Of a DNA stretch of 64,000 nt, positions 1,465 through 2,238 are shown piece by piece (positions within the stretch are counted from its first letter, which is position 1; every line of letters begins with the position of its first letter). The translations under genes and the position numbers were made by a program. Below the pieces are notes generated by a model. That model was not told the origin of the DNA. It was given only the letters and a program-made list of their open reading frames with translations, and searched no databases. Source of the stretch: Escherichia phage HMD-6; the sequence record PQ505080.1; one strand, written 5' to 3'.

Positions 1465-1938
1465 ATGGCTATAAACTTTAGACCTACAACAGAGATTGAT
1501 TTAGCAGGGCACAACTTTGTGATCACCCACTGGGGTCCGATGAAAGCAATGAAAAACATGCCTAAAATCGGTAAGATTGTAGCTGTCCCGCTAGGTGCTA
1601 TCGGTGGATCTATTCTCTCAGGCGGTCAGAATATGGCAGAGGTCCTTCCTACAGCCCTGGCTTACCTGTTCCAAGAACTTGATGACAACTCTATTGAAGA
1701 GTTATTTAAAATCTTGTTCGAAGATATTACCGTAGATGGTGTGGATAAGCTTAACCCTGATGTTGTGTTTGCAGGGCATCTCCTAGAGATGATTAAGCTG
1801 GCAGGTAAGGTTCTGGAGGTTAACTACGGCTGTTTTTTCACACAAGACGGTTTAGGAAGCCTTCTGGAGATGTTACAGCAGATGGGTATGATTCAGCAGG
1901 TGAACAATCTGGATCAGACTCCGGAAGAGCAGGAATAA
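1465..1938 (+). CDS. tail assembly chaperone (gpG-like)
   Basis: 157-aa ORF immediately upstream of the tape measure gene, with a slippery heptamer near its 3' end and an open -1 frame continuing downstream. Confidence 0.7.
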   Translation: MAINFRPTTEIDLAGHNFVITHWGPMKAMKNMPKIGKIVAVPLGAIGGSILSGGQNMAEVLPTALAYLFQELDDNSIEELFKILFEDITVDGVDKLNPDVVFAGHLLEMIKLAGKVLEVNYGCFFTQDGLGSLLEMLQQMGMIQQVNNLDQTPEEQE

Positions 1939-2198
1939 GCAAGGTTGTTGTGAGAGCCAGTGAGTGGGCAGCCAAGAACAGTTCACTCAACTGGTTCGAC
2001 TTTCTTTGGTGCAGGGTGCTCAAGAATTTCAAAGGGGAAAATTTTGAATCGCTAAATCTTGCAGATATGGCGTATTTCCTTAAACTTTGTGAGTATCTTG
2101 ATATCGAAGAATTCCTAGATACCGTCCAAAACAGGGAAATGGAGCGGGAGCAGAAGGCTGCCGCAGCTGCTGCGAAAGCTAAGCGCAGGAGAGGATAA
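1465..2198 (+). CDS. tail assembly chaperone frameshift fusion product (gpGT-like), -1 frameshift at 1833-1839
   Basis: Heptamer T_TTT_TTC (1833-1839) in the zero frame of the 1465 ORF. The -1 frame is open from 1824 to the stop at 2196-2198 and matches the 1950..2198 ORF of the track. Canonical G/GT arrangement ahead of the tape measure. Confidence 0.6.
1833..1839 (+). other. -1 programmed ribosomal frameshift slippery heptamer U_UUU_UUC
   Basis: X_XXY_YYZ motif read directly in the sequence (tgt ttt ttc in the G frame). Confidence 0.6.
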
Positions 2199-2203
2199 TC
2201 TAA

Positions 2204-2238
2204 GGGCCGGATTCCTTTTCTGGGATCTGGCCCTTTTT
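2204..2238 (+). terminator. intrinsic terminator-like hairpin between chaperone and tape measure genes
   Basis: GGGCCGGATTCC ... GGGATCTGGCCC stem (~12 bp, with G-U pairs), then TTTTT at 2234-2238. Confidence 0.5.

Follow-up and report, generated by a model that had tools for sequence, protein, structure and literature searches.

The tail assembly chaperone locus of the rV5-like Escherichia phage HMD-6 was analysed in a stretch of 64,000 nucleotides (nt) of sequence record PQ505080.1, referred to below as the window and numbered from its first letter. On the plus strand, an open reading frame (ORF) for a 157-amino-acid chaperone (the equivalent of lambda G, or TAC-N) is overlapped and extended by an open −1 frame (the equivalent of lambda T, or TAC-C), and the pair is separated from the tape measure gene by a strong hairpin. 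To judge from its sequence and from that of its relatives, the locus is very probably a programmed −1 ribosomal frameshift of the lambda G/GT type. Every feature of a G/GT-type chaperone frameshift that can be looked for in sequence was found at the locus, production of the fusion protein being a prediction. The proposal as a whole, in which a frameshifted chaperone pair is followed by a terminator and by a tape measure gene fed through read-through, is considered quite probable. Coordinates of the features are collected in table 1.

Slippery heptamer and −1 frame of the chaperone gene

The sequence-only reading had placed a slippery heptamer in the zero frame of the 157-amino-acid ORF, with the −1 frame open from there to 2198 and a fusion of about 245 amino acids as the predicted product. 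The phase over codons 123 to 125, the open frame and the length, which computes to 244 amino acids, were all confirmed. Position 1833 is the wobble base of the Cys123 codon, giving the X_XXY_YYZ phase, and TTTTTTC (U_UUU_UUC in the transcript) is the sole in-phase heptamer within the ORF. The −1 frame has a stop codon at 1821–1823 and is open from 1824 up to the TAA at 2196–2198. For a slip at Phe125, the predicted tryptic junction peptide of the fusion is VLEVNYGCFFHTR, and the zero-frame C-terminal peptide of the 157-amino-acid form is VLEVNYGCFFTQDG...EEQE.

In-phase heptamers were counted over the large ORFs of the window, where 67 were found in 19,441 codons and 0.13 would be expected in the 38-codon overlap. 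A −1 extension of at least 60 codons followed only three of these 67, and the chance of 119 stop-free codons at the local base composition was about 5.5e-4. Two other heptamers with −1 ORFs of more than 110 codons, AAAGGGG (53789–53795, plus strand) and GGGAAAC (38131–38137, minus strand), were rejected as ordinary gene overlaps in which the downstream gene has its own ATG and Shine–Dalgarno (SD) sequence. The +1 frame was likewise tried as an alternative and rejected, being open for just 19 codons across the chaperone stop codon.

The tblastn-positive phage records numbered 490, and the comparison set consisted of 50 loci, made up of 15 distinct GenBank relatives (chaperone 28–99% identical to that of the window) and 35 loci from IMG/VR. 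The GenBank relatives span five Vequintavirinae genera, Stephanstirmvirinae, Aeromonas Plateaulakeviruses and a Rheinheimera Barbavirus, and the search pattern used for IMG/VR selected the amino acids Phe-Phe and not their codons. An in-phase TTTTTTC was present at the homologous ...NYG[C/P]FF... position in 49 of the 50 loci (14 of 15 from GenBank and 35 of 35 from IMG/VR); the slip-site sequence of the Stephanstirmvirinae is CCCTTTTTTC. The codons xxT-TTT-TTC are invariant, and the wobble positions of the adjacent Tyr (TAC/TAT) and Gly (GGC/GGA/GGT) codons vary. The Rheinheimera Barbavirus relative has lost Phe-Phe and carries at the equivalent place GGGAAAG, a lambda-type heptamer, followed by a 93-codon −1 extension. 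The occurrence of two canonical ribosomal heptamers at one homologous position points to selection for ribosomal slippage and would be hard to explain otherwise.

In the 49 loci with TTTTTTC the −1 extension is 103–128 codons long, bar one locus in which it is ended by the contig edge, and the predicted fusions measure 244–252 amino acids in these loci and 231–252 amino acids over all relatives. Beyond the chaperone stop codon, most substitutions fall on third codon positions as read in the −1 frame (for instance 25/22/59 and 19/10/53 for positions 1, 2 and 3), and both an RFR motif directly 3' of the slip site and the helical core (A..SL.W...L.K..E) are kept in all lineages. By these comparisons, purifying selection acts on the −1 frame. 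In 10 of 18 diverged relatives, the −1 frame offers no possible start codon (ATG, GTG or TTG) on the stretch from the slip site to the conserved T core, so the T domain cannot in general be made alone. A collection of about 15 billion proteins did not contain the exact 244-amino-acid fusion, and both of its halves occur there on hundreds of contigs as hypothetical proteins. The call of a GT-type −1 frameshift, made originally from the window sequence alone, was thus upheld by an invariant heptamer, a selected −1 ORF, the lack of an independent T start in most relatives and the alternative canonical heptamer of one lineage.

The 157-amino-acid ORF was assigned as a chaperone by a match to the Pfam family PF21822 Phage_TAC_15 (84.5 bits, E = 1e-23, cut-off 22 bits) and to the PHROG family phrog_3840, 'tail assembly chaperone' (E = 6e-69). 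No other Pfam chaperone family scored above threshold for this ORF, and a PDB sequence search with the chaperone profile returned nothing below E = 0.17. The −1 segment matched only PHROGs of unknown function. It is laid out as a Gly/Ser/Asp-rich linker of about 30 amino acids, a helical domain of about 85 amino acids and a basic tail; a structure predicted from a four-sequence alignment, at low confidence (mean predicted local distance difference test score 51), gave a disordered linker followed by four helices. When the T segment was used to search for natural in-frame G–T fusions, only three short stand-alone ORF calls were returned, and the search was uninformative. The C-terminus of the long isoform (2160–2195, plus strand, −1 frame) is an Ala-rich stretch followed by the basic tail (KAAAAAAKAKRRRG), and a basic C-terminus (..RRG, ..KKFKGG) was seen again in most Vequintavirinae relatives.

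Table 1. Features of the chaperone and tape measure region, in window coordinates.
Feature	Position	Strand	Basis or description
Promoter P51 (rV5 P051), TTGACA-17 nt-TAAAAT, extended −10 TG	1393..1422	+	11/12 consensus matches; annotated and published in rV5
Zero-frame tail assembly chaperone (G/TAC-N equivalent), 157 amino acids	1465..1938	+	PF21822 Phage_TAC_15; phrog_3840; position between tube and tape measure genes
Predicted fusion, 125 + 119 = 244 amino acids	join(1465..1839,1839..2198)	+	Frame analysis
SD-like GGAGG, possible slip stimulator	1815..1819	+	13 nt 5' of heptamer
Slippery heptamer TTTTTTC (U_UUU_UUC)	1833..1839	+	In phase with chaperone ORF; Cys123 TGT, Phe124 TTT, Phe125 TTC
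−1 frame segment (T/TAC-C equivalent), 119 codons + TAA	1839..2198	+	Open frame; conservation
Probable intrinsic terminator (rV5 t050), 12–14 bp stem, 6-nt loop, U5	2202..2238	+	−25.6 kcal/mol; covariation; published prediction
Tape measure protein gene, 779 amino acids	2253..4592	+	PF20155 TMP_3; phrog_5255
Putative second intrinsic terminator (rV5 t049)	4605..4634	+	Directly 3' of tape measure gene, then late-type promoter region P048

Proposed slippage mechanism and alternative readings

Under the proposed mechanism, most ribosomes would make the 157-amino-acid chaperone and stop at 1936–1938. In a minority, the two Phe-tRNAs on UUU_UUC (1834–1839) would slip back by one base and re-pair on UUU_UUU (1833–1838); the slipped ribosomes would then read CAC at 1839 as their first codon and continue for 119 codons in all, to yield the 244-amino-acid protein. 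In the long form, the shared 125-amino-acid N-terminal chaperone domain would be joined through a flexible linker to a C-terminal helical domain. If the two forms act as lambda G and GT do, the shorter may coat the tape measure protein, and the longer may also recruit the complex to tube polymerization; the slip efficiency is, by analogy with lambda, probably a few percent.

The heptamer U_UU.U_UU.C is among the efficient ones in E. coli and is used by insertion sequence (IS) elements, and A-site tetramers are ranked A_AA.G > U_UU.C > U_UU.U (PMC4066793). SD-like elements located 6–17 nt 5' of a heptamer form a class treated as stimulators (PMC4066793). The locus shares its heptamer class with the stimulated frameshifts of dnaX and of IS3-type elements, and its GGAGG is spaced within that range; no conserved hairpin or pseudoknot, expected 5–9 nt after the heptamer in such frameshifts, was found, and the SD-like element is only partly conserved in the family. 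About 60% of lineages share a GGAGG or GAGG with the window, confounded by Leu-Glu-Val codons, and none occurs in the Certrevirus, Klebsiella and Aeromonas relatives.

Several points count against the frameshift. No conserved stimulatory RNA structure was found downstream, the 101 nt after the site giving z = −1.41 against shuffled sequences; the consensus fold of the alignment after the slip site was weak (−7.7 kcal/mol) and its pairs included the heptamer itself. Because no conserved downstream structure was found and the SD-like element is only partly conserved, the slip efficiency could be low. The paper describing rV5 makes no mention of a frameshift, and its supplements hold no entries for gp050 and gp051. 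The window also has an in-frame GTG at 1950, preceded at 5 nt by a weak AAGG, and some independent translation of T from this codon is possible in the phage of the window.

Carried to its limit, that last point leads to a reading as two ordinary genes, in which the 3' 249 nt of the −1 segment (1950–2198), the 82-amino-acid 'hypothetical protein' of the databases, is translated alone from GTG-1950 and the heptamer is incidental. The database record is on its side, since separate coding sequences were annotated in all records examined, with no joined coding sequence in any record of the relatives, and the 82-amino-acid protein was found on more than 1000 contigs. The starts annotated for the T ORF are inconsistent, however, at 60, 77, 81, 82, 83, 87 or 122 amino acids, and an independent product would miss conserved residues in the 10 of 18 diverged relatives that have no start codon before the core. 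The behaviour of the frame itself also opposes this reading: no stop codon interrupts the −1 frame between the T region and the heptamer in any of the 50 loci, even though the linkers vary in length, and the frame closes 3–50 nt 5' of the heptamer in the 14 GenBank relatives with TTTTTTC (Vequintavirinae, Stephanstirmvirinae and Aeromonas phages) and 93 nt 5' of it in the Rheinheimera phage. Two ordinary genes would, moreover, give no account of heptamer synonymous sites that are fixed while their neighbours vary, or of an RFR motif conserved right after the slip site, and the chance that this reading is correct is put as minimal.

The same fusion would also be obtained if RNA polymerase added one U on the homopolymeric T6 run at 1833–1838. 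Productive slippage of RNA polymerase in known cases uses runs longer than six Ts, and the six found here are few. Selection would be expected to lengthen such a run, yet none of the 49 TTTTTTC loci reaches seven Ts; the heptamer invariably ends in C, and only G or C is found before the run. In favour of transcriptional slippage, homopolymers are established sites of this kind of slip, which partly accounts for the avoidance of AAAAAAA and UUUUUUU in E. coli genes (PMC4066793); the T-run of the window and the sequence carried by the Stephanstirmvirinae at the slip site lend this mechanism some plausibility. Against it stand the strict X_XXY_YYZ phase, which is needed for the ribosomal mechanism only, and the GGGAAAG of the Rheinheimera phage, which is a classic ribosomal heptamer and cannot slip transcriptionally. 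Transcriptional slippage is accordingly given a very small probability, and ribosomal frameshifting is retained as the preferred reading.

Probable terminator hairpin and supply of the tape measure protein

A 12-base-pair (bp) hairpin with a U5 tract at 2204–2238, between the chaperone pair and the tape measure gene, had also been part of the sequence-only reading, and its coordinates were reproduced. Positions 2204–2215 pair with 2222–2233 in a stem of 12 bp (eight G–C, two A–U and two G–U) around a 6-nt loop, two closing A–U pairs lengthen the stem to 14 bp (2202–2235), and the T5 lies at 2234–2238. From the T stop codon to the start of the hairpin there are 3–5 nt, and from its end to the tape measure ATG 14 nt. 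It was the top terminator-like match in positions 1–12000 and the most stable of 11 in the 64 kb (−25.6 kcal/mol, compared with −10 to −20 kcal/mol); block-shuffled sequence yielded 0–5 terminator-like sites.

A hairpin and T-run follow the T stop codon directly in every complete Vequintavirinae-like locus. The stem sequences differ among Vequintavirus, the group of Seunavirus, Henunavirus and Avunavirus, and Certrevirus; in an alignment of 12 diverged versions, 10 consensus pairs were found, of which none was broken and four were changed on both sides. Aeromonas phages have an unrelated hairpin and T-run at the same place. From its sequence and these comparisons, the hairpin is likely to be a working intrinsic terminator.

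The hairpin is already annotated as a rho-independent terminator in RefSeq record NC_011041. In Table S4 of the rV5 paper (Kropinski 2013) it appears as t050 at −24.2 kcal/mol, a value surpassed only by that of t060, 3' of the major capsid gene (PMC3606486); the table also gives the tube gene and the tape measure gene a terminator each at the 3' end, t052 and t049 respectively, and lists promoters P051 and P048 (PMC3606486). The hairpin of the window is identical to t050 (GGGCCGGATTCCTTTTCTGGGATCTGGCCC TTTTTATTAT), and the counterparts of t052, P051, t049 and P048 match as well. As a claim of novelty, the earlier description of the hairpin as unusual was overstated, the hairpin being t050 and present across the subfamily. 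What is new here about the hairpin is its conservation across relatives.

The −10 region of promoter P51 is an exact copy, at 1413–1422, of the late-type motif TGGTAAAATA, which the authors of the rV5 study reported upstream of late genes (PMC3606486). Three exact copies of the motif lie in the window, all of them between genes, and two are located about 50 nt past a strong terminator. These two belong to a module of terminator, TGGTAAAATA and gene start, found on the plus strand at 16474–16535 (GCCCTCGCTTCGGCGGGGGC + T5) and at 21979–22045 (AAGCCCCGCTTCGGCGGGGTTT + T-run). The site at 2202–2238 is unlike that module in having no promoter 3' of the terminator. A bidirectional terminator at 37179–37204 (AAAGGGGCCGTTTGGCCCCTTT), with a T-run on either strand, is the counterpart of rV5 t026/t027 and marks the boundary of convergent transcription units.

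Neither inspection of the gap sequence nor a promoter scan revealed a promoter between the hairpin and the tape measure gene, the gap being 14 nt long and including the SD sequence GAGGA (2244–2248). With only 14 nt before the ATG there is no room for a promoter, and every tape measure transcript must read through the hairpin, which fits the attenuation that the sequence-only reading had put forward with reserve. In the proposed scheme, transcription would start at P51, and the hairpin with its U5 would end most transcripts just past the stop codon of the long form. The messenger RNA of the tape measure gene would arise by read-through only, the few-copy tape measure protein would come from far fewer transcripts than its chaperones, and the second terminator, which starts at 4605 and is given an end at 4626 or 4634, would close the gene. 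We infer that termination at the hairpin is partial and that its purpose is stoichiometric; the odds that attenuation of the tape measure gene is the role for which it has been selected are put at about even. Rho-dependent polarity over the mostly untranslated T region was also considered and judged unlikely, the region being G-rich and C-poor (C 18%, G 28%).

Other observations do not fit this scheme so readily. In Stephanstirmvirinae-like loci the frameshift is present and the hairpin is not, the tape measure gene starting only 14–25 nt after T; a chaperone system of this type can therefore do without the terminator. The sole hairpin near their chaperone unit is the one found 3' of the tube gene throughout the lineages. 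In some Certreviruses, sequences resembling a −10 box follow the terminator (TGGTAATAT and TGATAATAT; TTATAAT in PBES02), and locus L010 (2275–2299) is among the Certrevirus relatives with such a sequence. In loci L030, L032 and L034 (about 3262–3460), the terminator is set apart from the long tape measure ORF by some 200 extra nt. The supply of tape measure protein may thus differ among genera, Certrevirus included. No transcriptome for Vequintavirus was found in the literature.

The hairpin might instead be no attenuator of stoichiometry at all, and serve as an efficient end-of-unit terminator or 3' stabilizer of the chaperone messenger RNA, with the tape measure gene expressed through terminator-resistant late transcription that starts farther upstream, or as neutral punctuation. 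Such a role is in keeping with the position of rV5 late terminators behind strongly expressed genes (the capsid gene has t060 and the tube gene t052), with the recurrence of terminator and late motif as a module (16474/16526 and 21979/22036) and with the absence of the hairpin from Stephanstirmvirinae. Neutrality is opposed by the covariation and by the lack of any broken pair across the subfamily, and a stabilizer would change the stoichiometry equally. Since there is no room for a promoter, the hairpin necessarily lowers or gates transcription of the tape measure gene relative to the chaperones. A hairpin without an attenuating role is considered unlikely.

Coupling of read-through to the frameshift was considered in addition to simple attenuation. 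Only −1-shifted ribosomes reach the stop codon at 2196–2198, 3–5 nt from the stem, and unshifted ribosomes stop about 260 nt upstream, where they would not hinder folding of the hairpin. In E. coli, a ribosome that stops a few bp before an intrinsic terminator represses it almost fully, and termination efficiency rises with distance (PMC4824070). Coupling is conceivable because the stop codon of the shifted ribosomes adjoins the stem and ribosomes so placed repress terminators (PMC4824070). If it occurred, a frameshift by the leading ribosome would favour extension of the transcript into the tape measure gene and tie the supply of tape measure protein to the long isoform. Most Vequintavirinae loci have −2 to +4 nt between stop codon and stem, compared with 25–28 nt in L037 and L038 and about 10–20 nt in the Aeromonas phages; this variation, together with the Stephanstirmvirinae that have no terminator, argues against a strictly selected coupling, and a mechanical coupling of read-through to the frameshift is regarded as improbable. 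In L038, from IMG/VR, T terminates 26 nt sooner while the former ...GAGGTTAATCTC... context of the stop codon and the hairpin are kept, so that the stop codon lies 28 nt from the terminator and not 4 nt.

Genomic setting and relation to known systems

The window comes from an rV5-like Vequintavirus. Its first 6 kb matched 124 phage records, of which Escherichia phage JEP1 was closest (96.8% over the whole query) and most others were rV5-like Vequintavirus genomes at 96–99%. In FV3, HeinrichReichert, JEP1 and rV5 the order is tail sheath, tail tube, 157-amino-acid ORF, 82-amino-acid ORF, tape measure and baseplate genes, the rV5 counterpart of the 82-amino-acid ORF being annotated at 122 amino acids. 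The tube gene of the phage lies upstream of position 1 of the window, and the tape measure gene (ATG at 2253) is followed by genes for Dit-like, Pam3_gp18-like and baseplate-hub proteins.

Positions 1–1391 (plus strand) hold the 3' part of an HNH/homing-endonuclease gene (phrog_559, E = 1.5e-92; the JEP1_014 homologue has 540 amino acids), inserted between the terminator of the tail tube gene and promoter P51. This part was covered by only four of the 124 matching records (JEP1, 'Campylobacter' A147 and A135, and partly PDX), and the remaining relatives align from position 1370 onwards only; the last codons of the homing-endonuclease gene overlap conserved sequence immediately 5' of the −35 box of P51. 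About 18–23 unannotated GenBank records (MG0656xx), named 'Campylobacter phage A1xx' with Campylobacter jejuni as host, were 92–96% identical to rV5-like phages of E. coli, and their host label appears doubtful.

The G/GT chaperones of lambda, with a frameshift conserved among tail genes of double-stranded DNA phages, are reportedly the subject of work by Levin in 1993 and by Xu, Hendrix and Duda in 2004. The present locus resembles the lambda genes in having two overlapping ORFs placed after the gene for the major tail or tube protein and before the tape measure gene, and in requiring no strong RNA stimulator. It differs in its heptamer (G_GGA_AAG in lambda, U_UUU_UUC here), in belonging to a large virulent myovirus whose chaperone matched Phage_TAC_15 only, and in its own promoter and trailing terminator in place of one antiterminated late transcript. 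A chaperone frameshift in phage P2 (E/E+E') is said to have been described by Christie in 2002. The P2 and Mu-type systems are also myovirus chaperone pairs 5' of a tape measure gene with a −1 slip on a T-rich heptamer, and differ in being from temperate phages with another operon layout; we know of no intervening terminator in these loci.

In a paper of December 2025, a conserved −1 frameshift on GTTTTT was argued for the same gene in the related Vandenendeviridae (Pakpunavirus Adele) and Andersonviridae (PMC12846349). The TAC-N/TAC-NC pair of these phages shares with the present one a related virion module, a T-rich slip motif and the 'hypothetical protein' artefact before the tape measure gene, and there too the argument rests on a −1 frame that is uninterrupted in every genome (PMC12846349). 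That paper covers neither Vequintavirinae nor Stephanstirmvirinae and discusses no terminator after the locus (PMC12846349). In the rV5 paper, t050 is listed as a prediction only, and neither a frameshift nor the dosage of the tape measure protein is linked to it (PMC3606486). A literature search found no report of a frameshift for Vequintavirinae or Stephanstirmvirinae (rV5, PVP-SE1, phAPEC8 and Certrevirus).

The frameshift is thus an unannotated case of a textbook kind and the terminator an already published prediction. The main value of the finding is as an annotation correction, and specialists would not be surprised by it. In more than 100 public rV5-like genomes, and in Seunavirus, Certrevirus and phAPEC8-like genomes, the 'hypothetical protein' before the tape measure gene would really be the C-terminal part of a frameshifted chaperone, and the corrected annotation, join(1465..1839,1839..2198) in the window, is transferable to them. 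The near-universal G/GT recoding would be extended to two more subfamilies of large virulent myoviruses in phage-therapy use, with a U_UUU_UUC site that is retained unchanged even where protein identity falls to 28%. The succession of promoter, chaperones, strongest terminator, tape measure gene and terminator would offer a compact and easily mutated model for the ratio of chaperone to tape measure protein.

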